64,000 bases of DNA from Candidatus Hermodarchaeota archaeon (GTDB taxonomy: Archaea; Asgardarchaeota; Lokiarchaeia; Sigyniarchaeales; SOKP01), in assembly GCA_048885525.1 (NCBI GenBank), contig JBHLLP010000011.1:1552-65551 (forward strand), given 5' to 3'. Both the position numbers and the translations under genes were made by a program. Positions 2,766 through 45,393 of this stretch are shown here, one piece after another (positions within the stretch are counted from its first letter, which is position 1; each line of letters begins with the position of its first letter). The notes under the pieces are model-generated. The model saw nothing but the letters and a program-made list of their open reading frames with translations. It was not told the origin of the DNA and searched no databases.

Positions 2766-3689
2766 TTGGTTTTAAAAATGGAAACTGATTATAATCAAAA
2801 AACAATTAGGAAAAAAGAGGATGTAGGTACCCAAGGAACAATAAGTTCATTAAAATTTACACCTGATGGAAAATATATTATCTGTGCTTCAAAAAACTAT
2901 TTTGAAATATGGGACTTTGAATCGGGAAATCAAATTAAAAAAGTCAAAGCGACCACTGGTACATTTAGTTGGGTAAATGATGTAGCAGTTTCTCCTGATG
3001 GGCGATATATTATTACTGGAATTGAGAATGTAAGAATAAAAGTATGGGATTTTTTATCTGGAAATTTAGTATGGGAAGCCAAAACGAAAGGAGCTGTTTT
3101 AAAAGTCGACGTATCTGTTGATGGGAAAATAGTTATTGGAATAGCTAGAACATTTGGAGGAATACGTATTTGGGATTTAGAAACAGGAGAAGATATTGAT
3201 AAATTCAAAACTGGTGGAGTAAGTTTGACATTAGCGATCTCATCAGATAGTAATTATATCGCCTATGTAAAGGCAAAAAAATCTATTAATATATGGGATA
3301 TATCAGCTAGATCTACTATTAGAGAATTTAAAACTAAACAATTGGGTGATATTCATTCACTTGTGATAACCCATGACATGAAATATGTCATTAGTGGTTC
3401 GTGGAACAAGCTTATTCGAATTTGGGATTTTTCTACTGGTGAATTGATTAATACACTTGATGAACATAAGGGACCAGTATATTCTCTTGCATTAAATCCT
3501 AATGAGAAATATGTAGTAAGTGGATCAGGGGATAGAACTATAAAAATATGGAAGATACCTTCAGGCCAACTAACTCATTCTTTAACGGGGCATCAAGGTG
3601 CTGTTTTTGCCGTCTCAGTTTCTCCTGATGGAAAGTATATCGCCAGCGGATCAACAGATCAGATTATAAAAATATGGGAACTTCCTTAG
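2766..3689 (+). CDS. WD40 repeat protein (seven-bladed beta-propeller)
   Basis: Seven repeats end in WD-like dipeptides: IWDFESGN, VWDFLSGN, IWDLETGE, IWDISARS, IWDFSTGE, IWKIPSGQ, IWELP. GH-type starts are present (e.g. LTGHQGAVFAVSVSPDGKYIASGS). The track start is TTG 2766; ATG at 2778 is equally likely. Confidence 0.9.
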   Translation: MVLKMETDYNQKTIRKKEDVGTQGTISSLKFTPDGKYIICASKNYFEIWDFESGNQIKKVKATTGTFSWVNDVAVSPDGRYIITGIENVRIKVWDFLSGNLVWEAKTKGAVLKVDVSVDGKIVIGIARTFGGIRIWDLETGEDIDKFKTGGVSLTLAISSDSNYIAYVKAKKSINIWDISARSTIREFKTKQLGDIHSLVITHDMKYVISGSWNKLIRIWDFSTGELINTLDEHKGPVYSLALNPNEKYVVSGSGDRTIKIWKIPSGQLTHSLTGHQGAVFAVSVSPDGKYIASGSTDQIIKIWELP

Positions 3690-5337: not shown

Positions 5338-7350
5338 ATGAAGGTAAAAAAACGAATAACGTCTCGTAAACGTAAAATACGTTATGTTTTATTAATTATT
5401 CCAATTTTTAGCTTCTATATTTTTGTATTTCAACCCTTTTTTGGTTGTGTGTCTCCAAATAAAAATAATATTGAATATTTTGAGGGAGATCGCATAAAAG
5501 AATATCTTGATCGCGGTTTAGTTGCCATGTACATCAATAATACTCATGTCTATATAGGTTGGAGACTGCTTGAAGACGACCCAACAGATGTTTCTTTTAA
5601 TATTTATCGAGATACTGAAGAAAGCACTTCAACTAAATTAAATGTTAATCCTATTAATTTAACTACTGATTTTATTGATCAACCACCATTAAATGAAACA
5701 AATATTAGATACTGGATTCGTCCTATTATTAATAGTACAGAATTAGCAATCTCGAAAGAAACTGAAATCTTAAATAACGTAGGAGAACAATTTATTTCAA
5801 TAGATCTCAATGGAAATTATACATTTCAGAAAGTAGGAATTGCTGATCTTGATGGAGATGGAAATTTTGATTTTGTAATAAAGGAACCTAATTATAACAT
5901 TGATCCATATAGTCCTCCTTTGGGACATTGGAAACCAAGCACAGATACATACAAAATAGAAGCTTATCTTTCAAATGGAACATTTCTTTGGTGCAAGGAT
6001 CTTGGCTGGGACATTGAACAGGGAATTTGGTATTCTCCTTATATTGTCTATGATTTTAATGGAGATAATAAGGCAGAAGTTGTTATAAAAACAGGAACCG
6101 GAGATCATCGAGATATATTTGGACGCGTTCAAACAGGTCCAGAATACCTCTCGATATGGAATGGGATGTCTGGAAGTGAAATAAATCGTGTAAATTGGCC
6201 TAGTCGAATGCCCGAGATTTATAATTTTAATTCTCGAAACCAATTAGGCATAGCCTATTTAGATGGTTGTCATCCTTCCATATTAGCTGCACGAGGAACT
6301 TATGGAATAATGCAATTAGAAACATACAATTTAACAGGTAATCATCTTGTTAATCTATGGAAATGGAATAGTCGCCAAGAATGTTTCTTTAAATATTATG
6401 GACAGGGAGCTCATTATATGCATTCTGCTGATGTGGATTCTGATGGATACGATGAAGTTATATTAGGATCATGTGTTATTAATGAAAATGGTAGAGGCCT
6501 CTGGTCTACTGGATTGTCTCATCCCGATCATTGTTATGTTGGTGATATAGATCCGGGACATCCAGGACTTGAAATATATTATGGCATTGAAGGTGTAATC
6601 CATCATATTCCAAAATATGATAATGGTATCTGCTTAGTTGATGCGGCGACAGGGAATGTTTTATGGGGTATAAAGGAAAATACTTATCATATTCATAGTC
6701 AAGGATTAGTATCTGATATCGATCCTTCAAAACCAGGAATGGAATGCTATAGTGGTGAGGATAATTACCCAAAGAGATGGTTACATTCTGCAAATGGAAC
6801 GCTTATTGAAAATGAAGAACCAATTGATATTGGATTGAATCCTAAAGCTGTTTATTGGGACGCTGATCTTCAGCGTGAATTAATTCATGAAGGAAGAATT
6901 TTTGATTATGAAACAAAATATACTCATTTCTCTGGTGTTCAAGGATACCAAGTTGCTTGGGCAGATATATTAGGTGATTGGAGGGAAGAAATTATAGTGT
7001 CATTAGAAGGAGAGCTACGAATATATACAACCACCATACCCGCTCAAGATCGGCGAGTTTGTTTGATGCAAGACCCGATTTATAGACTCGATGTTGCCCA
7101 CCTTTCTATGGGATATGCGCAGGTTCCTACAACAAGTTATTGTCTTGATGATACAGTGATTAAACCTTCTATTTATGTTGAATCTGGAGATAATTTTTAC
7201 AATTTTATAATGATCTCTGTTTTAATAGCTGTGATTATTCTTAGTATTATTTCTGTAATTATGATAACATATTGGCTTGTTCTAAAAAAAAGATCAATTA
7301 TAGACAAACTTAGTACAATTTTAGTTGAAAATAAACCAAGTGAAAAATAA
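5338..7350 (+). CDS. PL11-like rhamnogalacturonan lyase beta-propeller protein, membrane anchored
   Basis: N-terminal signal/TM segment. LDRGLVAMY...GWRLLEDDP...FNIYRD resembles the YesW/YesX N-terminus as I recall it. Repeated FG-GAP/Ca-binding loops are present (DLDGDGNFDFVIK, YDFNGDNKAEVVIK, ADVDSDGYDEVILGS, ADILGDWREEIIV). The C-terminal RIYTTT...LMQDPIYRLDVA...YAQVP block is PL11-like. A C-terminal TM helix is followed by KKRS. Confidence 0.6.
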   Translation: MKVKKRITSRKRKIRYVLLIIPIFSFYIFVFQPFFGCVSPNKNNIEYFEGDRIKEYLDRGLVAMYINNTHVYIGWRLLEDDPTDVSFNIYRDTEESTSTKLNVNPINLTTDFIDQPPLNETNIRYWIRPIINSTELAISKETEILNNVGEQFISIDLNGNYTFQKVGIADLDGDGNFDFVIKEPNYNIDPYSPPLGHWKPSTDTYKIEAYLSNGTFLWCKDLGWDIEQGIWYSPYIVYDFNGDNKAEVVIKTGTGDHRDIFGRVQTGPEYLSIWNGMSGSEINRVNWPSRMPEIYNFNSRNQLGIAYLDGCHPSILAARGTYGIMQLETYNLTGNHLVNLWKWNSRQECFFKYYGQGAHYMHSADVDSDGYDEVILGSCVINENGRGLWSTGLSHPDHCYVGDIDPGHPGLEIYYGIEGVIHHIPKYDNGICLVDAATGNVLWGIKENTYHIHSQGLVSDIDPSKPGMECYSGEDNYPKRWLHSANGTLIENEEPIDIGLNPKAVYWDADLQRELIHEGRIFDYETKYTHFSGVQGYQVAWADILGDWREEIIVSLEGELRIYTTTIPAQDRRVCLMQDPIYRLDVAHLSMGYAQVPTTSYCLDDTVIKPSIYVESGDNFYNFIMISVLIAVIILSIISVIMITYWLVLKKRSIIDKLSTILVENKPSEK

Positions 7351-18069: not shown

Positions 18070-20412
18070 ATGAAGGAATTATTCAAAAATCGTAAGATTA
18101 TCATTAAATCTCTCTTATATTTAATATTGGTTATTATAGTTCTTATTTCTTTTTGGAAAATTATTTTCCCAAGCAGTATCGGAGGCTTTTTTATATTCAT
18201 TGCCTTTGGATTATATTATGTAATATCAACTAATGTTTTTAGCAATATTATAATCATTTTATTTTTAATATATTTATTTTATAAGATTTTCAGCTTAAAG
18301 ACTCATAGAAACAAGAAAAAAAAACAATTTCCAAAATTATTTTTTTTATTTATAATATTGATCTCACCCCAATTCTTTATTTCTGACCAAGATTTTATTG
18401 CCCCTAAATTAAGTCAAGGAGAGTGGGAATTCTCAATGAGAACTAATTTCACTCGTACTATCGATTTATTTGAATCTTTTAACGCTACTCAGGGATACAA
18501 ACAACGCAAGACTATATATTTAAATGGTACTAAAAATAGTAATAATGTTTATGCACAACCTGCTCGAGTTTATCAAAATTTAAATATTAGTGAAATTGAC
18601 ATCGAGACATCACTTTATAGAATTTATAATTTTCAGGATTGTCTTGATTTTACATTGAATTCTCTTGTGCGTCTAATTTATATTGACATAAATAGGAGTG
18701 TCTTAAGTTCATCAATAAGAAGTAAAGTCTGTGATGCTTTTGGTAAAGCACAGTATTGGTATACAGAAGGAAGAAGAAGTGATCAAATATTTTATACTGA
18801 AAATCACCAAATTCTCTATCACACTGCTGAATTGCTCATAGGGCAATTATTTCCAAATGATACTTTCGTTAATTCAAACATGACTGGAAATGAGCATGTT
18901 AACCACGCATTACCATTAATAAAAAGATGGCTTAATTGGCGAGCACAATTTGGTTTCTCCGAGTACCATTCTGATACATATTATATCTATGATATTGCAG
19001 CACTTGTTAATTTAGCAGACTTTTCCGAAGATCCTGAAATTATTTATAAAGCGGCTATGGTATTGGATATTATAGCTTTTGATTTTGCCAATAATTATTT
19101 CAAGAGTAGGTTCGCTACAACTCATGGTCGAGTTTATGATCGTACAAAAGTAGGAAGAGGCATGGATTCTCCAGCTTCCCGTGATAGTACTTCAGAGGCT
19201 GCATGGATGATGTTAGGAATTGGAGAACATAATCCAAATGATAGAAGTAATATTGCCGCAATTGCTTTAGCTACGAGTGATTATTATGCACCTCCTCCTA
19301 TCTTAGAGGCCATAGCAATCAATATAACTCAATTTAATGAACATAAAGAATGTAATAGTATTAATATGAATGAAGGTCCGATTTATAATCTCAATTATAA
19401 TGAAGAAGATCTTATGTTTTGGTTAGGAATGACTGCTGTTTATGCTCCACAAACTGTAAAAGAAATCTTTGATCTTGTAGATAAGTACAATATAAAATCA
19501 GATACAATTTATGGTCCTGAACTTCTAAGGGATTTTTTCACGGTATCTTCTTTTTTACATGGATTAACTCTTAGTGAATACTCTGACAAAATGAAATTAA
19601 TTACTCAAGGTATTTGTTTAGAAACTTCAAATACATATACATATAGAACTCCGTATTTTCAACTTTCTGGTGCCCAAGATCATAAAAAAGGGATGAATAC
19701 TTATCAAGAACACGTTTGGCAAGCCACTCTAGACAACAATGCTTTTGTTTATACCAATTCACCTGGAGGTGTTACTAAAGAGCTTGAACAAGAATATGTT
19801 GGAGGATGGAATCCTCGTGCTACATTATATAAGAATGTAGGAATCATTCAATATGACCGTGAAACATTACCGTTAGAGGGAGAACTTCTTTTATACTTTT
19901 TAAATCTCATCATGGGGAATAAGTTTTATCAACATGCATATTTTCCTCGTTGGGCTTTTGACTATTGGGAGCAGCATGGTAAATGGACATTTGGAGCTAA
20001 AGGTAACGGATATATTGGATTATATTCTTATATGGATACTTATTGGGCTTCAAATTATGAACTTCGAGTAAATGGTTTCAAAAATCTTTGGATAGTTGAA
20101 TTAGGAAGTGCTGATGAATACGGATCATTTGACCAATTTATATCAGATATTCGGCAATCTCATATTCAAGTGACCCCTCAAGCATTAGGGTACAGTATAC
20201 GTTATACATCTCCCTCTCAAGGACAGATCAGTGTAGCGTGGGAAGGTCCAATGAAAGTAGATGGTAATGAAGTTGACTTAGGTCCATATCCTCGTTTTGA
20301 AAATGATTTTTGTTATCAAGATTTCGGCACTAAAAACACTCTGATACAGTTTGGTAACCAGAGCTTAGTCTTAAATTTCGATACTGTTTCAAGGATATAT
20401 CAAATTACTTAA
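18070..20412 (+). CDS. membrane-anchored hypothetical protein; possible alpha/alpha-toroid plus beta-sandwich (heparinase II/III- or alginate-lyase-like) ectodomain
   Basis: Four N-terminal hydrophobic helices and a poly-K stop-transfer (HRNKKKKQ). A roughly 650-aa domain follows, with a helix-rich first half (TENHQILYHTAELLIGQLF, WLNWRAQFGFSEYHSDTYY) and a strand-rich second half. The lyase assignment is only a guess. Confidence 0.3.
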   Translation: MKELFKNRKIIIKSLLYLILVIIVLISFWKIIFPSSIGGFFIFIAFGLYYVISTNVFSNIIIILFLIYLFYKIFSLKTHRNKKKKQFPKLFFLFIILISPQFFISDQDFIAPKLSQGEWEFSMRTNFTRTIDLFESFNATQGYKQRKTIYLNGTKNSNNVYAQPARVYQNLNISEIDIETSLYRIYNFQDCLDFTLNSLVRLIYIDINRSVLSSSIRSKVCDAFGKAQYWYTEGRRSDQIFYTENHQILYHTAELLIGQLFPNDTFVNSNMTGNEHVNHALPLIKRWLNWRAQFGFSEYHSDTYYIYDIAALVNLADFSEDPEIIYKAAMVLDIIAFDFANNYFKSRFATTHGRVYDRTKVGRGMDSPASRDSTSEAAWMMLGIGEHNPNDRSNIAAIALATSDYYAPPPILEAIAINITQFNEHKECNSINMNEGPIYNLNYNEEDLMFWLGMTAVYAPQTVKEIFDLVDKYNIKSDTIYGPELLRDFFTVSSFLHGLTLSEYSDKMKLITQGICLETSNTYTYRTPYFQLSGAQDHKKGMNTYQEHVWQATLDNNAFVYTNSPGGVTKELEQEYVGGWNPRATLYKNVGIIQYDRETLPLEGELLLYFLNLIMGNKFYQHAYFPRWAFDYWEQHGKWTFGAKGNGYIGLYSYMDTYWASNYELRVNGFKNLWIVELGSADEYGSFDQFISDIRQSHIQVTPQALGYSIRYTSPSQGQISVAWEGPMKVDGNEVDLGPYPRFENDFCYQDFGTKNTLIQFGNQSLVLNFDTVSRIYQIT

Positions 20413-20432: not shown

Positions 20433-21296
20433 GTGAGAATTAGAAAATATTTAAAAATAGGTAAACCATCAGTAAAAGGAGCGATAATGGTGCTCTTTGG
20501 TATTTTCAATTCTCGGATAGGCATAGGGGTTGAAATCTTCACTATAAATCTTATTTATGGGCCTTTAGCATATCTCTTTCTAGCGCTATCAGGAATATTG
20601 ACAATTAAACTAGTTCAGATTTTAGATAATCCGTCTTATAGTGGTATATTTTCTAAAAAGAGAGCGTTAATTATGTTTGGGGTACTTTTTCTTATTTGTT
20701 TTATTCTAATCATTGTTAATGTAATTGAGAACATGATTATCTATTACTTCAATATAGTTATTATATTTTTTACAGTCTCTATTGGCATTCTTTGGAGTTT
20801 TCTAGGTTTTATTGGTTATAAGAATAAAAAAAAGGTCGGATATATAAATATTTTAATTATATCTCTTACATTTTCAATCGGATTAATTTACGGAGCTTTA
20901 TTAAATACGTTAATTATACCTATCTACATTTATTTCTTCTTTTTATCTACTCTCTTTCTACAACTTTCGCGAGAATTAGTAAAAGGTTTTAAAATAAATG
21001 ATATAACTGATGATTTTTTAGGATTAGATAGTCGTAATAACCAAAAAAAAGTTTTAAAAGTTTCTTTAATTTTCCAGATTTTAGCAATTGTTTTCTTTAT
21101 ACTTCCCATTTACTCTAATATCTCTTATCCTATCTTGTTTATTGTTTTAATGATTATTGGTATATTTTTTATAAGTTTAGCAGGAATTTTAACATTAAAG
21201 AGCATTTTAGAAAATAATATTTTTCATAGAATAAGTTTAATTTTAAAAATCGGAATACTTTTTGAACTTATCACTCTTCTTATAATTGGTAGTTGA
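20433..21296 (+). CDS. UbiA prenyltransferase superfamily-like membrane protein with degenerate Asp-rich motifs
   Basis: The layout aligns by eye to DGGGP-synthase-type UbiA proteins. KYLKIGKPSV sits at the N-terminus. YSGIFSKKRALIMFGVLF sits where PxSGxxSxxxAl normally follows motif 1. LSRELVKGFKINDITDD sits at the motif-2 position. The NDxxDxxxD motif itself is replaced by QILDNPS. GTG start; alternative ATG at 20487. Confidence 0.45.
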   Translation: MRIRKYLKIGKPSVKGAIMVLFGIFNSRIGIGVEIFTINLIYGPLAYLFLALSGILTIKLVQILDNPSYSGIFSKKRALIMFGVLFLICFILIIVNVIENMIIYYFNIVIIFFTVSIGILWSFLGFIGYKNKKKVGYINILIISLTFSIGLIYGALLNTLIIPIYIYFFFLSTLFLQLSRELVKGFKINDITDDFLGLDSRNNQKKVLKVSLIFQILAIVFFILPIYSNISYPILFIVLMIIGIFFISLAGILTLKSILENNIFHRISLILKIGILFELITLLIIGS

Positions 21297-21448: not shown

Positions 21449-24400
21449 ATGGTTATTTTGAGGTTACTTTCCCTTAATAAAATGTATAGAAGAAAGAGTA
21501 TTTCTTTTATAAAAGCAAATAAAAAGAAGTTTTTAGCAATCTCATTAATTTCAATTATCTTATTTCAGGTACCAATAGTAAATATAACTAACGTTATTTC
21601 TGAAGAAATCACAAAACCTGAAAATATAAGATCCTCTATTCCAGTAGAAGATGAAGTAGATCAATTTTCGAATTCAACAGAGGAAAAATCAAATATTGAA
21701 AGTATAGTACCGCCTGCTCCGCCTGAAGATATTGTAATCCAATTTTCAAATTCACCCGATGTGGTTTTTGATATTAATTATTATTTTGCTCAAGAAAAAG
21801 TGCAAATAAATATAAGATTAAGGAATAATCTTACTAACCCAATATCTCTTCTTAATTTATGGATACAAGTGAATAAAAGCGATCCAGATGAAAGAATATT
21901 ATTATCTGCTACATTTATTAGTGAGGAGTCTGAAAAATTATCTTTATCTACATTTGATACTTCTGAATCGATGATCTTTCATATAAAATTATATGAAGGA
22001 GAAATAATAGAAGTAAACGAAGAATTTGATGAAGTATTTTTAACTTGGGTTGATCCAGATGGGATTTTTGCTCAGTATAATCCAAATTTACTCTATAATG
22101 ATATTGCAGATGATATTGAGGCTTATTTTGAATATTCAATAGATACAGAAGAACCACAACTTTTTCCACTTATAGAACGTCAATTTTATCAATTTAGAAC
22201 ATTAATGTTTTGTGTTGATTTTAGGATCACTAATTTAATGTCAACTGATTTAGATGTTTTTAATTTTACTTACGTAAAAATCAAAGATTTCACCTCTGAA
22301 CAGTACTTGGATCTTAGTATTCAATCTCCATTTTTATCAAGTTCAGAAATTTCCAATATTGAATTAAGCTATTCTGTATTTAATGACAGAATTGAATATT
22401 ACATAAGTTTTAGCCAAAATGTTATTCTAAGTCCAAATGAATGGTTTAAAATTTTAACTAAATGGGCAGGAGTGCCAGGTGAATCTACAATTGGGCGTGA
22501 TCTAATTATATGGAACACTGGTGACGATGACCCATTTAATTTTGGTTATCCTTTTTATGATATAGGAGATCCATTTTATCCAGTTCTATCACCAGCAGAA
22601 CCAATTGTGGATATTGATTATGATGGTGACGGACTTAGGAATAATGTTGAAATTAGTAATGGATTAAACCCTTATGTGCAAGAACCATGGTTAACTTGGG
22701 AAACCTTAAGAAGTAACCATTATGTTGCCGCACAATATTCATCGGGTCTTGAACTAGGAGGAAAAATAGGGATAGTAATTCCCTCCGATTTCTCTAATAA
22801 TGAGCTAATTATGGATGTCCAATCTCTAGGGGTGCAGGATACTCTAAAGAACATAACTGTTAATAATGAACTTATTTATAATGATATTACCTCTATAGGG
22901 AGATTCAGTCTTGCAAACCCCGCGAATGATTACGTCTATAAAATAAAATTAAGAGTTTCTCATGATGTATATGGAAATATGGTTGCATCAACTTTTTCTA
23001 TAAAATTTTTGATAGGGAATACTGAGATTATTGATATGAGTTCATTTTTTCAACTTGATTCTGATGGGGATGGTTTAATAGATGATTTAGAGGAAAGTGC
23101 CTATGTTGAAGTCCCTGACGTTGATAATGATGGATTAATTGATGGAAGCGATGTCATGCCTTTTACTAAAATTGAATGTGCACCAAATGAAATCTATAAA
23201 CTAAATTTTCCAATATATGATACTAATTCAGAAATTGGAGTAAATATTCAAATTAAACCAACTATAGATGACTATACTGAAACTTTCGATTACCGCGGAA
23301 ATGAACTTTATATATTGCCAGGTTTGCGGATTTATAGTTTAAATGTTGGAGGAGATTATTTACCTGATAATTGTTTTTCAATAGATGATGGTTTAACTGG
23401 GCTTATTAGATTAGTACCTCTTAATAGTTTTGGAAATGAGAAACCATATACCTGGTCTAAGACGTTAATATATGAATCTGCAAATTTAGCAAAAAATGAT
23501 AACCAAATTACATTAAGATTTCAATTATCATGGCTTATTTTTGAGCATGATCCAATAAAAATGGAATCAAAACTGTTGCATATATATGATAACACAAATC
23601 AATATACAATTCAAGGAATTTCAATTACAGAAAATCACCCAACAAATATTGTATTAGGTCTGGTTGATGATGGTAGTGATTATCGAAACACAGGAAAGAA
23701 TGCATTATTAGCAACGTATGATCAAGTATCAAATATTGCTTATGATCCAAATAATTACCCATCAATGGAGTTATTTCCAGCTTCTTGTAATGATCTTAGT
23801 GATGTAAATAATACTAGAGATGAATTACGTAATTATATTTTAGAACAGAAAAATCTAGACATTGCAACTACTAATTTTATTTATCTTACCTATGGATATA
23901 CAATGACCTATAATTTTAAATTATTAATTGATGAATTTGGAAATATTCAAGAAAAATATTATACACCAACAGAAATCAATAATTTCTATTCTCTCCCTGA
24001 AACTTCATTTTTTGGCATTATTACAACCCAACTTATAAGAGATGATTATATTGAATTCGTTAAACAATTTACATATGCTTACAAAAATAAGACTGTTGAA
24101 TCTTTACTTTTCAATATTCAATTTTCAAAATGTAAATATGTTGCTTCTGGATCTGATGAAATTTATTGTTTTGAGGGCATAAAAGAAGAGAGTAATGTAT
24201 GGATCTTTTGGTTTGATTTTAAAGAAAAAGAAAATTTGATAAAAATTCGTAATGCAGAAAGTTTTCAATTTACTTGGAATTTACCTATTTTTAGCTTATC
24301 ATTATCTGGACCAACTAACGAGACTTTGATTGAATTTACAGGACTCTATGACGATATACCTATATTAGGAGATATGTTTAATACATATCTTAAAAAGTAT

Positions 24401-27301
24401 GAAGGTGATAAAGCTATAGGGCAAATACCTGTTAAACTGGCTGAAATTGGAGTATTCATAGGCGCTATTTTAGAAGCTATGGGAAAGTTTGTAGATTGGG
24501 GAGGGCGTGTAGGGTTATTATCAAAAGGTATGGGAGTTTTTAGTTTAATAGTTGGTGGATTGAGATTAGGTTATGGAATTGATCTAATTAATCAAGGAGC
24601 ATATAAAACAGGGATGGCTGAAGTGAATCGAGCGGTAATGTCGATTTATTCAGGTATTTTAGCATTTTGTCCTGCTAATCCCGTGACTTTAGTCCTTACT
24701 GCAATAGTTCTTGTTGTAACGCTGGTAGATTGGATTTGTAGCCTATTTGGGTATGATATGTGGGGTGAGTTATTGGAGTGGTGTGGCCTTGAAGATGCAA
24801 ACCCGGCGTATGAAATCACTGACTATTATTTAAGTTATGATACAGCTTTATTAAAACATCAAGGAAGTTTTAGGGTAGGAGATCAGGTTTCATTTCATCT
24901 TGCATATAAGAATACTGGAAATACAAAAATGTGGCTTAGAGTTAAAATAGGTGCTGGATACCTAGGTGAGTGGGGAGAGGAAACGGAAATGTATACCCGA
25001 GGGGGAAAATATTTTAAAAATGAAGACCAGACAACGGTTACCGATACTTTTGAAGTAGCGTATCCCATGACAGTAATAAAGATTTACACCTCATTAAATT
25101 GGTACTATGATGAGTCAGGTGCGGTTATCGTTGTTGCATATCCTCCATTTATTATATACTATGATCCAGATCCAGTTTGGGGAGGACCTTATTCTAATGT
25201 TGAAGAGGTTACGTTTGATATGCCCGTAATGCCTCAAAACATAAATGAGTTTATATATCTTCTTAGGTCTGGTTTATGGTTCCCAGATTGGATAGCCAGT
25301 CCACCAGAAACCAGTGTTACCCCTATTAAAGATGAAATTATCCCAATTTTTTCTGAGGATTTAGCATATTGGATTAGAATCACGAATAGATTATCCAGTG
25401 AACAAACATTTGATCTTATTGGCTCAAATGAAGAAATGTGGGACTATACTTTTTATAAAAGAAATTTTCTAGGTTATTACACTATTCCAACAACTGAAAT
25501 TACACTTGATCCCTGGGAACAGAAAAAGATCAAAGTTTGGATAACCCCCACTTCAATAAATCCACTCCGACCTGGCAATCATACTTCAATTGTGAGAGTT
25601 CAGAGTCAAGAAGCATCATTCATCAGATCTAATGTTAATTTGGATTATGAAATAATTCCACTTATAGGTTTTAAAGTTGATTTTGACCCGATCTTAATTG
25701 AAGGGTTGGATTTAGGAGGAGATGATTATTTGGCATATTTTATAAATGTTACAAACACAGGGAATTTACATGATAATTATACAGTTGAAATTTTGAATTT
25801 AGATATTGATCTTTATGACCTATATAAATCTGCATTATCCGCTTATCCCTTGAGAATGGATTCATCGTTAATTGTATTTTATATTCCATGGGGTAAAATA
25901 GTATTTCCTGGAGAAATATATTTCAATATTAAAGTAAGTTCACATGCAGATCCTAACCTGATAAAGATGTTTAATTGCATCCTTGATATTCAAGAATACC
26001 ATAGAATGAGCTTTTTCGTTGAGGAAGCCAATTTAACATTAACAGATAGTGATATTTTTGATTATAATTTGCATCTCACTAATTTAGGAAATGTTGAAGT
26101 ACCTTTTAATATATCATATACTAATGTGAGTTTTGCCAATACTTTCATCCCGCAGAGTTCCTATATAATGATTCCTGGTCAATATGAAAATTTTAATTTA
26201 ACTATGATACCATTCGAATTAGGTACTGATTCATTTACCATAACAGCAACAACTCCTTATATTTCCAAAACTATTGAAGCGTATATTACAGTACTTGATG
26301 ATGATATATTACCTCCGTGGTTTGAAGCTGTAATAATCAAAGATAATTGTTTCTTCCTTAATATTTCATTTTTAGCATTTGATGAAGTGGAATGGCATAG
26401 TGATGATATTGGAATAGCAAATATATCTATTTATGTAGATGATGTGCTTATTCATAATTATTTACCCACTCCCTCTGAAACAGAATTCAACTTTACTTTT
26501 ACAAATGATTGGATAATGGAATACGGAAACCATACAATTCGTATAGAAATAACTGATGCTGATAATGATAGGCCGAATGACGCTTTAACTACCATCTTAG
26601 AAGCCACTTTTGAAGTTACTCCTGATGAAATGATGGAATATATTCTATGGGAACTTAGTGAACTTGAGGATTATATAGAAGATGTACTCCCATTTTGCTT
26701 TAATAGACCACTTATTAATCATCTTCACAGAGCTCAATGTAAAGTTTGGTGGGCTTTATATTTCTATAATTTTGGATATGATTCAAAGGCAGTACTTTTA
26801 GATATGTTAGCTAAAGCTAGTTTGGAGTTTTATGATATGTTTATATATGTAGTATTAAAACATCATAGAATTTCTGAAGAAGTTGGAGATTATATTTTAG
26901 CTCAAGTTCATAAAATACGTGATCATTTATCCCTTACTATGGGAGCAATAGTTGGAACTGAAACGGCTCTAGAAATTGCTAATATAATCGTAGAGATTTC
27001 TCAATTCGTGGATAACTTCTCCATATACCATAATTTCTGTTTATATATGGCAATTCAACACTATATTAGATGCGCTATTGGTGAATTAGAGTTTGTTCTT
27101 TATTTAATGAGTAAAGGTTATCTACCAGAATGCTTTATTCTTGAACATATTTCTCACGCAATTTTTAAATTAGAATTAACTCAAAAGAAAATTGAGTGCC
27201 TAGTTAAATGTGGCAAAATATCTGAAGAATGTGGTTTATTGCTTATCGAAAAGATCGAATATTTTATTAGTAAAATTAGTAATTTAGAGAATTTTTTATA
27301 G
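21449..27301 (+). CDS. giant (1950-aa) cell-surface protein with a central TM cluster
   Basis: N-terminal signal anchor (KKFLAISLISIILFQVPIV). DxDxDG Ca-binding loops (DIDYDGDGLRNN, DSDGDGLIDD, DVDNDGLIDG). Gly-rich hydrophobic cluster at about aa 990-1110. CARDB/NEW3-like beta-sandwich signatures (VTNTGNLHDNYTVEI, LHLTNLGNVEVPF, PGNHTSIVRVQS). Helical tail of about 220 aa. Many N-x-S/T sequons. Alternative start at ATG 21482. Confidence 0.7.
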   Translation: MVILRLLSLNKMYRRKSISFIKANKKKFLAISLISIILFQVPIVNITNVISEEITKPENIRSSIPVEDEVDQFSNSTEEKSNIESIVPPAPPEDIVIQFSNSPDVVFDINYYFAQEKVQINIRLRNNLTNPISLLNLWIQVNKSDPDERILLSATFISEESEKLSLSTFDTSESMIFHIKLYEGEIIEVNEEFDEVFLTWVDPDGIFAQYNPNLLYNDIADDIEAYFEYSIDTEEPQLFPLIERQFYQFRTLMFCVDFRITNLMSTDLDVFNFTYVKIKDFTSEQYLDLSIQSPFLSSSEISNIELSYSVFNDRIEYYISFSQNVILSPNEWFKILTKWAGVPGESTIGRDLIIWNTGDDDPFNFGYPFYDIGDPFYPVLSPAEPIVDIDYDGDGLRNNVEISNGLNPYVQEPWLTWETLRSNHYVAAQYSSGLELGGKIGIVIPSDFSNNELIMDVQSLGVQDTLKNITVNNELIYNDITSIGRFSLANPANDYVYKIKLRVSHDVYGNMVASTFSIKFLIGNTEIIDMSSFFQLDSDGDGLIDDLEESAYVEVPDVDNDGLIDGSDVMPFTKIECAPNEIYKLNFPIYDTNSEIGVNIQIKPTIDDYTETFDYRGNELYILPGLRIYSLNVGGDYLPDNCFSIDDGLTGLIRLVPLNSFGNEKPYTWSKTLIYESANLAKNDNQITLRFQLSWLIFEHDPIKMESKLLHIYDNTNQYTIQGISITENHPTNIVLGLVDDGSDYRNTGKNALLATYDQVSNIAYDPNNYPSMELFPASCNDLSDVNNTRDELRNYILEQKNLDIATTNFIYLTYGYTMTYNFKLLIDEFGNIQEKYYTPTEINNFYSLPETSFFGIITTQLIRDDYIEFVKQFTYAYKNKTVESLLFNIQFSKCKYVASGSDEIYCFEGIKEESNVWIFWFDFKEKENLIKIRNAESFQFTWNLPIFSLSLSGPTNETLIEFTGLYDDIPILGDMFNTYLKKYEGDKAIGQIPVKLAEIGVFIGAILEAMGKFVDWGGRVGLLSKGMGVFSLIVGGLRLGYGIDLINQGAYKTGMAEVNRAVMSIYSGILAFCPANPVTLVLTAIVLVVTLVDWICSLFGYDMWGELLEWCGLEDANPAYEITDYYLSYDTALLKHQGSFRVGDQVSFHLAYKNTGNTKMWLRVKIGAGYLGEWGEETEMYTRGGKYFKNEDQTTVTDTFEVAYPMTVIKIYTSLNWYYDESGAVIVVAYPPFIIYYDPDPVWGGPYSNVEEVTFDMPVMPQNINEFIYLLRSGLWFPDWIASPPETSVTPIKDEIIPIFSEDLAYWIRITNRLSSEQTFDLIGSNEEMWDYTFYKRNFLGYYTIPTTEITLDPWEQKKIKVWITPTSINPLRPGNHTSIVRVQSQEASFIRSNVNLDYEIIPLIGFKVDFDPILIEGLDLGGDDYLAYFINVTNTGNLHDNYTVEILNLDIDLYDLYKSALSAYPLRMDSSLIVFYIPWGKIVFPGEIYFNIKVSSHADPNLIKMFNCILDIQEYHRMSFFVEEANLTLTDSDIFDYNLHLTNLGNVEVPFNISYTNVSFANTFIPQSSYIMIPGQYENFNLTMIPFELGTDSFTITATTPYISKTIEAYITVLDDDILPPWFEAVIIKDNCFFLNISFLAFDEVEWHSDDIGIANISIYVDDVLIHNYLPTPSETEFNFTFTNDWIMEYGNHTIRIEITDADNDRPNDALTTILEATFEVTPDEMMEYILWELSELEDYIEDVLPFCFNRPLINHLHRAQCKVWWALYFYNFGYDSKAVLLDMLAKASLEFYDMFIYVVLKHHRISEEVGDYILAQVHKIRDHLSLTMGAIVGTETALEIANIIVEISQFVDNFSIYHNFCLYMAIQHYIRCAIGELEFVLYLMSKGYLPECFILEHISHAIFKLELTQKKIECLVKCGKISEECGLLLIEKIEYFISKISNLENFL

Positions 27302-43668: not shown

Positions 43669-45393
43669 TTATCCCTCCTCTGGTACAAAACCTTCTATTT
43701 CTGATGACACCATTATTTCCTTAACCTTTGTAAAAGCATCAGCGATTCTCTTTGAAACGTTTTTAGCAGAATAAATTGTGATATATTTACCAAGTGGAGT
43801 TGCATTAACAATTTCTGTCATTTTTCGATGAACGCGTTTTAGTTCGGGTCCAACTCCAATTAAAATAATATTGAGGGGAGGCTCAACTTTTTTTATATAA
43901 TTTGCAACTTTGCGAGAATTATACTTTTTACTTTGATTATCTTCTCCATCTGTTAGAGTTACAATCCATTTCTGTCGTTCTTGAGTTTTTTGTTCTGAAA
44001 TTGGTGGTGCTCCCAATAATATATCTATTGCATTAGCTATTGCATCATATAAACTAGTTTGATAAGGTAAAAAGTCCATTTTTTTAAATATATTAGTAAT
44101 TTGCGATACATTACCTTTTTTCTCTGTTAATTTGAGATGGTTATGTACAATAGAATCAAAACCAATAATTGCAACTCTATCTCCAATGTTTATTGTTTCA
44201 TTGAAGACTCCCAAAGCTCCTGTTCGAGCTGCCCCCATTTTTCCCCACATGCCCATGCTCCCAGATTGATCAATTACAAAAACCACATCTTTTTTACGAA
44301 CCAGTACATCATCTACTTTTGAAAGTTCAAGCTCTGCTTTATGATGAAGAGTTGTATTATCCTGACTTTCATATAATTGAACCATAACTTCAAGGACATT
44401 TTTCATTAAAGGATAATTCCCAAGATTTTCTGCTAATTTCAAAGCATTTTTAAAATGATCCTCTGCAATCCCTGGATTGTTTTTTAATATATTTAGCCTC
44501 CCTAGTTGAAATTCATCTTCTGATAATCCTACATTATTTTCCCATTTACTATCAAGTCTAAATGCCTCATCAAGTTGTTCTTGAGCGAGATTCAATTCAT
44601 TTTTTAACATGTGAAGTACTCCTATATTTCTTTTTCTTGAAGCAATTCCTAACTTATCTCCCAACTCATTGTCAAGTTTAAGAGCTTTGTTAAAATCGTC
44701 CATTGCTTCTTGCCATCGTTCTTCTGAAAGAAAAAGAAGAGCACGATTGTTATATCTGGCACTTAATGCTCCAATATCCTCCTGTTCTTCACCAATTTTA
44801 ATCGCCTTATTATAACTTTTCCTTGCTTTATCAATATCACCCCAATTCCTGTAAATATTTCCAAGATTATTTAAACACATGCTCTCTCCATGAAGATTTT
44901 TTGTTGTTTGAAATAATTCTAAAGCAGCATTATAGTTTCTGAAAGCAAGCATCAAATTACCTTGATAATAACTTTTATTCCCTAAACGCATTGTAACCAA
45001 TAAACTCTGAAAAGATTGGGCAAGTACACCAATTTCATTTCTTCTCATTCTTCCACTCATAGGAATTTCTTGGGTTAAATCACCTTCAGATATTTGTTCT
45101 ATTGAATGTGTTAGCTCTATAATTGGTTTGGTTATTCTTCTGGAGATACCATTTACAGCAAAAAATATGATAATACCGGTTATAGCTGATCCAATAATGA
45201 TGGTTATGATTAAAGGGCTTTTTAAAGCTTCAAGTGAACTGTACCCTAATCCTATAAAATAGTCAATATTTGTTAAGAGTTGATACGCTAAGAAAATTGT
45301 TAAAAGTATGAAGGGGATTGAAATACAGGTAATCATAACAATGAAGAGCCGTTGTCGTAATGTTCTTCTTTTTCTTATTTTTTTAACTTCCAT
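43669..45393 (-). CDS. TM-HAMP-TPR-vWA (intact MIDAS) membrane protein
   Basis: Two TM helices. A canonical HAMP (ITKPIIELTHSIEQISEGDLTQEIP...RNEIGVLAQSFQSLL). About 6-7 TPR units (e.g. AFRNYNAALELFQ, ARKSYNKAIKI, AMDDFNKALKL, AEDHFKNALKLA). A vWA domain with VVFVIDQSGSMG (DxSxS), QTSLYDA (Thr) and TLTDGEDN (Asp). Confidence 0.75.
   Translation of the reverse strand: MEVKKIRKRRTLRQRLFIVMITCISIPFILLTIFLAYQLLTNIDYFIGLGYSSLEALKSPLIITIIIGSAITGIIIFFAVNGISRRITKPIIELTHSIEQISEGDLTQEIPMSGRMRRNEIGVLAQSFQSLLVTMRLGNKSYYQGNLMLAFRNYNAALELFQTTKNLHGESMCLNNLGNIYRNWGDIDKARKSYNKAIKIGEEQEDIGALSARYNNRALLFLSEERWQEAMDDFNKALKLDNELGDKLGIASRKRNIGVLHMLKNELNLAQEQLDEAFRLDSKWENNVGLSEDEFQLGRLNILKNNPGIAEDHFKNALKLAENLGNYPLMKNVLEVMVQLYESQDNTTLHHKAELELSKVDDVLVRKKDVVFVIDQSGSMGMWGKMGAARTGALGVFNETINIGDRVAIIGFDSIVHNHLKLTEKKGNVSQITNIFKKMDFLPYQTSLYDAIANAIDILLGAPPISEQKTQERQKWIVTLTDGEDNQSKKYNSRKVANYIKKVEPPLNIILIGVGPELKRVHRKMTEIVNATPLGKYITIYSAKNVSKRIADAFTKVKEIMVSSEIEGFVPEEG

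Follow-up and report, generated by a model that had tools for sequence, protein, structure and literature searches.

What keeps a surface protein of 1950 residues in the cell envelope when its hydrophobic helices lie in the middle of the chain? The question is raised by a gene of a Candidatus Hermodarchaeota archaeon, within a 64,000-nucleotide stretch of DNA (hereafter the window; assembly GCA_048885525.1, contig JBHLLP010000011.1, positions 1,552 to 65,551). An original prediction, made from the sequence, had described the product as two extracellular-looking halves separated by a Gly-rich hydrophobic cluster. We found that the protein represents a real and conserved family, restricted to Asgard archaea as far as the searched databases show, and that the cluster is kept by its homologues, always in the middle of a giant chain. 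On balance, we favour a giant Asgard envelope protein with a mid-chain membrane anchor and both halves outside; we infer its topology, its anchoring and a role in the surface coat or in adhesion from the evidence set out below.

An intact gene of a conserved Asgard family

21449-27301, + strand: complete open reading frame of 1950 residues including the stop codon, uninterrupted and with full-length homologues

The frame starts with ATG, with an alternative start possible at Met12. On the translated frame, the DxDxDG loops were found where the original prediction had placed them, as were the hydrophobic cluster and the C-terminal 225 residues. Among 5.8 billion proteins, a word-indexed search recovered 17 homologues (1338-1952 residues, 38-67% identity), 15 of which span 95-100% of the query, plus one partial relative; a profile search returned the same set. 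They are named only as 'hypothetical protein' and come from metagenome-assembled genomes (MAGs) of Promethearchaeota and Odinarchaeota. An exhaustive HMMER search with a profile of the central module against 1.84 billion cluster representatives found eight of these representatives, all of them giant proteins in which the module lies mid-chain. The alignments of the newly found relatives to the window protein reach well past the module: P0020 aligns over its full length at 38% identity and P0022 over residues 21-1638 at 29% identity. The whole architecture recurs in about 20 independently assembled homologues of 1850-1950 residues at 29-67% identity, and all named homologues belong to MAGs of Promethearchaeota, Thorarchaeota or Odinarchaeota. 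A scan of the GTDB species genomes saw relatives only in Promethearchaeota and Thorarchaeota MAGs; its query consisted of two peptide patterns from the C-terminal domain, so that it was non-exhaustive and makes no claim of absence from cultured Asgard strains.

Collinear full-length homologues are found in NCBI, ENA, JGI and Logan assemblies of differing samples and lineages, and in all of them the central module sits at the same place. It is practically inconceivable that misassembly or an artefactual fusion made the frame by joining two surface-protein genes near 24.4-24.8 kb: nothing was found in favour of such a chimera, and the full-length collinear architecture is kept across many independent assemblies; besides, the module profile matches solely mid-chain positions of giant proteins, and the base composition is continuous across this interval (G+C about 30% throughout the window).

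The family, including its central module and its C-terminal helical module, has no match in the libraries searched here. Pfam (window protein and 15 homologues) gave no match reaching threshold, NCBIfam (four members) gave none at all, and sequence-profile searches of the PDB gave nothing significant, whether the query was the full-length protein (0 matches at E <= 1), the central module (0 at E <= 10) or the C-terminal module.

A central module of hydrophobic helices

24359-24781, + strand: central helical module with flanking amphipathic helices, residues 971-1111 (AlphaFold2 helices; mid-chain profile matches)
24425-24484, + strand: helix 1 (H1), residues 993-1012, moderately hydrophobic, with conserved E998 and E1008 (AlphaFold2, hydropathy)
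24500-24592, + strand: helix 2 (H2), residues 1018-1048, with the Gly heptad G1036-G1043-G1050 (AlphaFold2, hydropathy, Gly spacing)
24602-24661, + strand: helix 3 (H3), residues 1052-1071, after a conserved QGA turn, with the heptad G1055-1062-G1069 and conserved E1058 and R1061 (AlphaFold2, hydropathy)
24680-24745, + strand: helix 4 (H4), residues 1078-1099, the most hydrophobic and of transmembrane grade (Kyte-Doolittle value, KD, 2.48), with conserved D1094, followed by an acidic flank and a DANP motif

The cluster picked out by the original prediction covers residues ~991-1114 (nucleotides 24418-24790). AlphaFold2 adds shorter amphipathic helices on its two sides (971-985 and 1104-1111), so that about six helices are predicted in ~140 residues. 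We analysed hydropathy as 19-residue Kyte-Doolittle peaks averaged over 16 aligned family members. Only five clear peaks stand out over the 1950 positions, one at the N terminus (2.29) and four in the central module (1.47, 1.53, 1.30 and 2.11); they lie 2.6-4 standard deviations above the protein mean (mean -0.12, standard deviation 0.54), and the next-highest peak reaches 1.01 at residues 1830-1848. The expectation of three to four hydrophobic helices thus holds as far as the number of helices and the family-wide peaks go, whereas in the window protein, by simple hydrophobicity scales, H4 alone is clearly of transmembrane grade, H1-H3 being marginal and charged. In P0020 and P0022 the equivalent helices reach KD 2.0-2.5 and are much more hydrophobic than those of the window protein; in P0020 all four are of transmembrane grade.

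The module contains 15.2% Gly, against 5.1% protein-wide, and about half the charged residues of the rest of the protein. The 'glycine-zipper spacing' that had been proposed for it could not be upheld, as GxxxG is not enriched (3 observed, 2.7 ± 1.4 in shuffles) and small-xxx-small patterns are likewise near the shuffled level (10 against 8.7 ± 2.2). The conserved glycines are heptad-spaced instead. Five of them are invariant or nearly so, and position 1062 is Gly in 81% of members and Ala in the window protein; together they make up the two heptads listed above, on either side of the invariant QGA turn, where AlphaFold2 builds a helix-turn-helix. H2 and H3 may accordingly be modelled as a tightly packed antiparallel hairpin. 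R1061 and D1094 are equidistant from the H3-H4 turn. One otherwise full-length homologue, P0010, is without ~51 residues corresponding to residues 1013-1063 (H2 and the QGA turn). Either such a deletion exists in nature or the assembly is in error here; a genuine deletion would leave an odd number of helices.

The signal-type segment and the N-terminal half

21530-21586, + strand: N-terminal hydrophobic segment, residues 28-46, candidate signal peptide or signal anchor (preceded by a Lys/Arg-rich n-region; KD 2.32)
21587-24403, + strand: putative N-terminal ectodomain half, residues 47-985, ~940 residues (AlphaFold2 model md7e37e41953c, predicted local distance difference test score, pLDDT, 68)
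22616-22651, + strand: DxDxDG calcium-binding-type loop 1, D390-E401 (12-residue motif)
23057-23152, + strand: DxDxDG loops 2 and 3, D537-E548 and D557-D568, thrombospondin-type-3-like (ligand positions invariant)

An n-region and an h-region are present in all complete homologues, and in the distant ones the h-region is short (12-14 residues) and resembles that of a signal peptide. The segment contains no lipobox Cys. It is of signal type, putatively a Sec signal peptide or an anchor.

Conservation is highest in the N half that follows, where well over 100 columns are invariant. The AlphaFold2 model divides this half into beta-sandwich domains, five or six in number, and a single alpha/beta domain (~745-846). 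What Foldseek found for the half was weak and generic (Bap BSP, integrin legs, mu-homology and CBM3 domains). Its N-x-S/T sequons (8 against 10.5 expected) show no enrichment.

The calcium loops that had been proposed for this half are there, as three canonical 12-residue loops (390-401, 537-548 and 557-568), all of which fit the pattern D-x-[DN]-x-D-G-x-x-[DN]-x-x-[DE]. In each loop, positions 1, 3, 5, 6, 9 and 12 do not vary across 15-17 homologues; in loop 1 the invariant residues are D390, Y391, D392, D394, G395, L396, N398 and E401. The arrangement, with Asp, Asn or Glu at positions 1, 3, 5, 9 and 12 and Gly at position 6, is that of thrombospondin type 3 (TSP3) repeats or of dockerin-type EF-hand loops, and the loops are predicted to bind Ca2+. 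They differ from TSP3 and dockerin modules in being three isolated loops in low-confidence linkers rather than a repeat array, and the Pfam model TSP3_bac gave an insignificant match in one member only (E = 0.065).

The beta-sandwich array of the C-terminal half

24806-26620, + strand: putative C-terminal ectodomain, Ig (immunoglobulin)-like, DUF11/CARDB-like beta-sandwich array, residues 1120-1724 (~600 residues), with NxGN motifs and enriched sequons (AlphaFold2, Foldseek)

AlphaFold2 modelled residues 940-1950 (pLDDT 74.5) with an array of Ig-like sandwiches. Foldseek matched this half to HYDIN/ASH and complement MG arrays in the PDB and, as the top match in BFVD, to a DUF11 protein (E = 1e-15), where the TM-score of 0.11 allows only a generic fold assignment. 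With both half-models as multidomain queries, helical modules included, Foldseek returned tandem beta-sandwich arrays only, at TM-scores of 0.1-0.2. No structure of a fusexin or class II fusogen is among these matches, and we rejected that candidate.

The beta-sandwich character of the C half is therefore agreed upon by AlphaFold2 and Foldseek. Of the CARDB- and NEW3-like sandwiches that the original prediction had named, the array stands and membership of the two Pfam families does not: CARDB (PF07705) and DUF11 gave no Pfam match at E <= 1 in the window protein or at E <= 0.1 in 15 family members, and NEW3 (PF10633) gave none in either. DUF7507 matches stay below threshold (E = 0.012-0.12). 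The best Pfam match is Big_7 (PF17957; residues 1651-1698, 17.6 bits, E = 0.0063), which falls short of its gathering cutoff of 24.1 bits and recurs weakly in 4 of 15 family members. The motifs NTGNT, NTGNL and NLGNV are conserved. The sequons described as dense are indeed enriched over residues 1111-1725, with 11 N-x-S/T against 5.3 ± 2.1 expected, and some are conserved.

A proposed mid-chain anchor and its alternatives

In the reading that we favour, the signal-type segment at the N terminus would direct the protein into the Sec pathway for export, and both halves would come to lie outside the cell, the N half (~940 residues) stiffened by its three Ca2+ loops and the C half comprising ~600 residues of sandwiches and a 225-residue helical bundle. 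The chain would be held in the membrane by the Gly-rich module in between, as two antiparallel hairpins (H1-H2 and H3-H4), with H2 and H3 tightly packed through the heptad glycines around the QGA turn. The module would cross or dip into the bilayer an even number of times and, if the signal peptide is cleaved, would be the sole membrane anchor.

We place the N half outside because of the positively charged n-region before the signal segment and the calcium loops. For the C half, a distant relative is informative. Past the residue equivalent to 1638, P0022 runs through an fn3-like stretch into a strongly hydrophobic helix (KD 2.76), after which comes a long tail rich in Lys; its gene is complete on the contig. 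By sequence this is a type-I anchor arrangement and, because it follows a collinear beta region, it argues that the beta region is outside. The strongly acidic flank after H4 and the enriched, partly conserved sequons of the beta region point the same way. An extracellular location of both halves, as originally proposed, is thus the best reading. The central module must then make an even number of membrane crossings, dip in and out of the bilayer, or not insert. Four crossings fit the four hydropathy peaks best; two crossings or re-entrant hairpins are the alternatives. The assignment of the module as anchor follows mainly from the lack of any other if the signal peptide is cleaved, since we found no C-terminal transmembrane helix, lipobox or PGF-type tail in the window protein. 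The mid-chain anchor of the original prediction therefore remains its most plausible role: the module is conserved, helical, hydrophobic and Gly-rich, and lies most plausibly in the membrane.

Several observations weigh against this reading. On a Hessa-type sum of apparent insertion free energy, H4 of the window protein comes to ~0.1 kcal/mol, whereas H1-H3 reach only marginal values, both there and in the clade related at 40% identity (+2 to +10 kcal/mol), as they do by the Eisenberg measure (<H> = 0.43-0.52); both are crude implementations and no substitute for DeepTMHMM. Conserved E998, E1008, R1037, E1058, R1061 and D1094 leave uncharged stretches of just 10-17 residues between them. AlphaFold2 confidence is below 50 for residues 952-1018, which include H1, and around H1 the positive-inside rule is not clearly satisfied. 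In paralogous Asgard giants (see below) the central cluster has five hydropathy peaks, and if all five were transmembrane the halves would lie on opposite sides. Finally, the gene neighbourhood is not conserved across the family; hence it gives no contextual functional support and allows no operon-level inference.

It is possible, though unlikely, that the H3-H4 hairpin is a latent membrane-insertion element shielded by the amphipathic helices, comparable to colicin, the diphtheria-toxin T-domain or Bcl-2-type domains. The protein would then be secreted or N-terminally tethered, and triggered insertion into its own or a partner membrane would serve contact, fusion or pore formation. The strong hydrophobicity of H4 next to marginal H1-H3 would suit such an element, as would the packing of about six helices into ~140 residues and the ~32-residue uncharged stretch (1062-1093), which is split by a PANP/PDPTG turn and bounded at matching depth by conserved R1061 and D1094. 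However, neither the PDB profiles nor the listed top 50 Foldseek PDB matches revealed similarity to pore-forming or translocation domains, including colicin, the diphtheria T domain and the delivery region of large clostridial toxins; no toxin, immunity or secretion genes are linked; and several central helices of P0020, P0022 and the paralogues have the strong hydrophobicity (KD 2.0-2.7) of ordinary transmembrane helices. A membrane-inserting or pore-like function, which the original prediction had offered beside the anchor, found no support in anything tested as far as a pore is concerned.

We consider it distinctly unlikely that the module is a soluble Gly-rich helical linker with a hydrophobic core, making no membrane contact, in a protein that is released or held by an uncleaved N-terminal signal anchor only. 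The module has 10-14% charged residues in most members, with conserved charges inside the helices, and small residues in heptad spacing are known from soluble antiparallel coiled coils too. Against such a linker speak a hydrophobicity 2.6 to 4 standard deviations above the protein mean, a charge content about half that of the rest of the protein and an H4 with KD up to 2.5; moreover, the short, signal-peptide-like h-region of distant homologues would leave the protein with no anchor.

Quite improbable, to our mind, is an odd number of crossings (for example H2, H3 and H4), which would keep the N half outside, put the whole C half into the cytoplasm and make the protein a transmembrane link between surface and interior. 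H1 is the least convincing transmembrane helix, with its two conserved Glu and pLDDT below 50, and the five peaks of the paralogues would also fit. In addition, the C half finds its best structural matches in cytoplasmic ASH/HYDIN arrays, and the helical tail is Cys-rich in the clade of the window protein and has no conserved Cys pairs. These matches, however, with TM-scores of 0.1-0.2, reflect generic tandem beta-sandwiches and not specific homology, and DUF11/CARDB-like sandwiches with NxGN motifs are of a kind known from extracellular proteins. The type-I anchor and Lys-rich tail after the homologous beta region of P0022, the acidic flank after H4 and the sequons of the beta region likewise stand against a cytoplasmic C half.

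A C-terminal helical domain shared with other giants

26621-27298, + strand: C-terminal all-helical domain, residues 1725-1950, eight helices of 22-27 residues (AlphaFold2 pLDDT 80-90; no significant PDB or Pfam match)
26345-27298, + strand: shared C-terminal module, residues 1633-1950, made up of the last Ig-like domain and the helical domain (found as well in Asgard proteins that otherwise differ: P0018, the L007 giants and L013-L016)

The final ~220 residues had been described as all-helical and of no recognised family, and so they are: AlphaFold2 gives eight helices, and no significant Pfam or PDB match was found. Their Cys/His/Tyr-richness applies to the window protein, whose last 225 residues contain 8 Cys, 10 His and 14 Tyr, and is not, for Cys and His, a feature of the family; Cys numbers 4-12 in the clade of the window protein and 0-2 in distant homologues, and no Cys column of the domain is conserved. 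We accordingly rejected a metal- or disulfide-based role for the tail. The C terminus of the window protein is an amphipathic helix without a transmembrane segment, and a PGF-CTERM-like or archaeosortase sorting signal is absent from it, with no NCBIfam match. When a profile of the domain (window 26606-27298) was compared with the PDB, the best match was the long helix of influenza HA2 (E = 0.15, 14.9 bits), most likely noise from helical composition.

The module equivalent to residues 1633-1950 also ends P0018, which has hydrophobic helices of its own at 657-837, and the proteins of L014-L016. That of L016 has no central cluster, and the frames of L014 and L015, which may be incomplete, are short (~860-910 residues counted from the first Met). 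In their helical domains, the L013-L016 proteins seem to resemble the 40%-identity clade far more than the window protein, to whose domain theirs are only 22-25% identical. A word-indexed protein search with the module returned seven fragments only and missed known members, and is thus uninformative on the distribution of the module. The sharing of the module suggests that it contacts a conserved partner.

Beyond the family we found paralogous giants. Two of them, of 2213 and 2296 residues, flank P0006 (L007:3163-9804 and L007:17528-24418), and one of the same kind, of 2179 residues, is encoded in a Thorarchaeota MAG (L013:6861-13400). Like the window protein, they have a signal segment, and their TSP3-like region is homologous to its residues 386-737. 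An N/D-x-P motif comes after their central hydrophobic cluster, as it does in the window protein, and their C-terminal Ig-plus-helical module is homologous to that of the latter (29-42% identity). They differ in N halves that are mostly unlike that of the window protein and in having their own larger and more hydrophobic central clusters (five hydropathy peaks, KD up to 2.7), which the central-module profile did not recover.

Gene neighbourhood

In the window, the neighbours of the gene are of unremarkable metabolic or membrane-protein types. They encode ThuA, GFO/IDH/MocA and OYE-type oxidoreductase proteins, a 780-residue membrane protein, a weakly UbiA-like and a PEMT-like protein, an alpha/beta hydrolase and an MFS transporter. 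Neither tRNA genes nor Rfam elements were found within the window. Two of these genes, in the same orientation as the giant gene, immediately precede it: that of the 780-residue protein (18070-20412), which has N-terminal transmembrane helices and is without a Pfam match, and then that of the UbiA-like membrane protein (287 residues, 20433-21296). This pair also precedes the giant gene of the closest relative (67% identity, L001), at 77% and 67% identity, respectively, and is absent beside distant homologues; the 780-residue, UbiA-like and PEMT-like neighbours are common only to these two loci. About 3 kb downstream of the 67% relative is a gene for a 2138-residue NosD/beta-helix/cadherin-like giant surface protein (L001:19165-25581); genes for Asgard giant surface proteins seem to cluster.

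The 40%-identity clade has a different setting, in which the giant gene stands between a divergently transcribed gene for a secreted protein of 287-337 residues (L002:6036-6899(-), L003:8946-9869(-) and L004:6336-7349(-); 57-77% identical among loci) and a downstream gene for an LVIVD-repeat protein of ~1020 residues (L002:12798-15914(+), L003:15776-16635(+) and L004:13228-16281(+)). The L002 copy of the latter has a C-terminal transmembrane helix; at L003 the contig ends within the gene. Homologues of neither neighbour are present in the window. Other, unrelated genes of the window encode a WD40 beta-propeller protein (2766-3689), a family-11 rhamnogalacturonan lyase with FG-GAP repeats (5338-7350) and a HAMP-TPR-VWA protein (43669-45393).

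Known systems and the Asgard cell surface

The protein most resembles CARDB/DUF11-type adhesin-like surface proteins, with which it shares a signal-type segment, long predicted beta-sandwich arrays, NxGN motifs, N-glycosylation sequons and Foldseek matches to a DUF11 protein, Bap BSP, pilins and integrin legs. It differs from them in that it falls below every Pfam and NCBIfam threshold, in an N half unusually conserved for a stalk, in a novel helical bundle at its C terminus and, if the anchor is placed correctly, in being anchored mid-chain and not at the N or C terminus.

Two large extracytoplasmic domains flanking transmembrane hairpins are also found in MacB/FtsX-type permeases, RND/SecDF proteins and eukaryotic prominin. 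By analogy, the window protein would share with these its topology alone, that is, large outside domains and an even number of membrane helices; there is no relationship in sequence or fold, and those proteins have transport cores or more transmembrane helices.

A closer precedent is offered by the giant 'archaeovorins' of Omnitrophota, which are reported to have numerous internal transmembrane regions (bioRxiv 10.1101/2023.11.21.568195). Like the Asgard protein, they are very large and largely unannotated and, as proposed for it, have mostly extracellular domains broken by internal transmembrane helices. They differ in being bacterial, more than 10 times larger and equipped with SecA-like and enzyme domains, whereas the Asgard protein has a single compact four-helix module between two ectodomains; we detected no homology. 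Given that internal transmembrane regions of giant prokaryotic proteins have this precedent, the window protein is of the surface adhesin-like kind and not categorically new. The internal membrane module, originally called unusual, is less so in that the plan recurs in the Asgard paralogues as well.

Cultured Lokiarchaeia have a single membrane without an S-layer, and their bodies and protrusions carry unidentified 'complex surface proteins', which are thought to mediate cell-cell contacts relevant to eukaryogenesis (PMC9834061). The giant protein probably contributes to the non-crystalline surface coat described for them (PMC9834061). Its shared C-terminal Ig-plus-helical module would dock the giants to each other or to a common partner in this S-layer-less coat. 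A bolder reading, which we regard as rather unlikely, is that the family and the giants sharing its C-terminal module form an undescribed, Asgard-specific 'split-ectodomain' class that builds the surface densities of Lokiarchaeia, and that the central module is more than an anchor. With its buried Glu, Arg and Asp and its Gly-heptad packing, the module could then be an oligomerising or a signal- or ion-conducting unit that couples the two ectodomains or, alternatively, a membrane-active element in contacts with syntrophic partners.

Should the protein prove to be no more than an adhesin with an odd anchor, the finding would matter mainly for annotation, by giving about 20 or more 'hypothetical proteins' a domain family of their own. 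The family adds two helical modules without known relatives and a putative mid-chain attachment to the membrane, which is uncommon. Together with the docking-type C-terminal module that several other giants share, this conserved and lineage-restricted family supplies concrete candidates for the surface densities of Lokiarchaeia.

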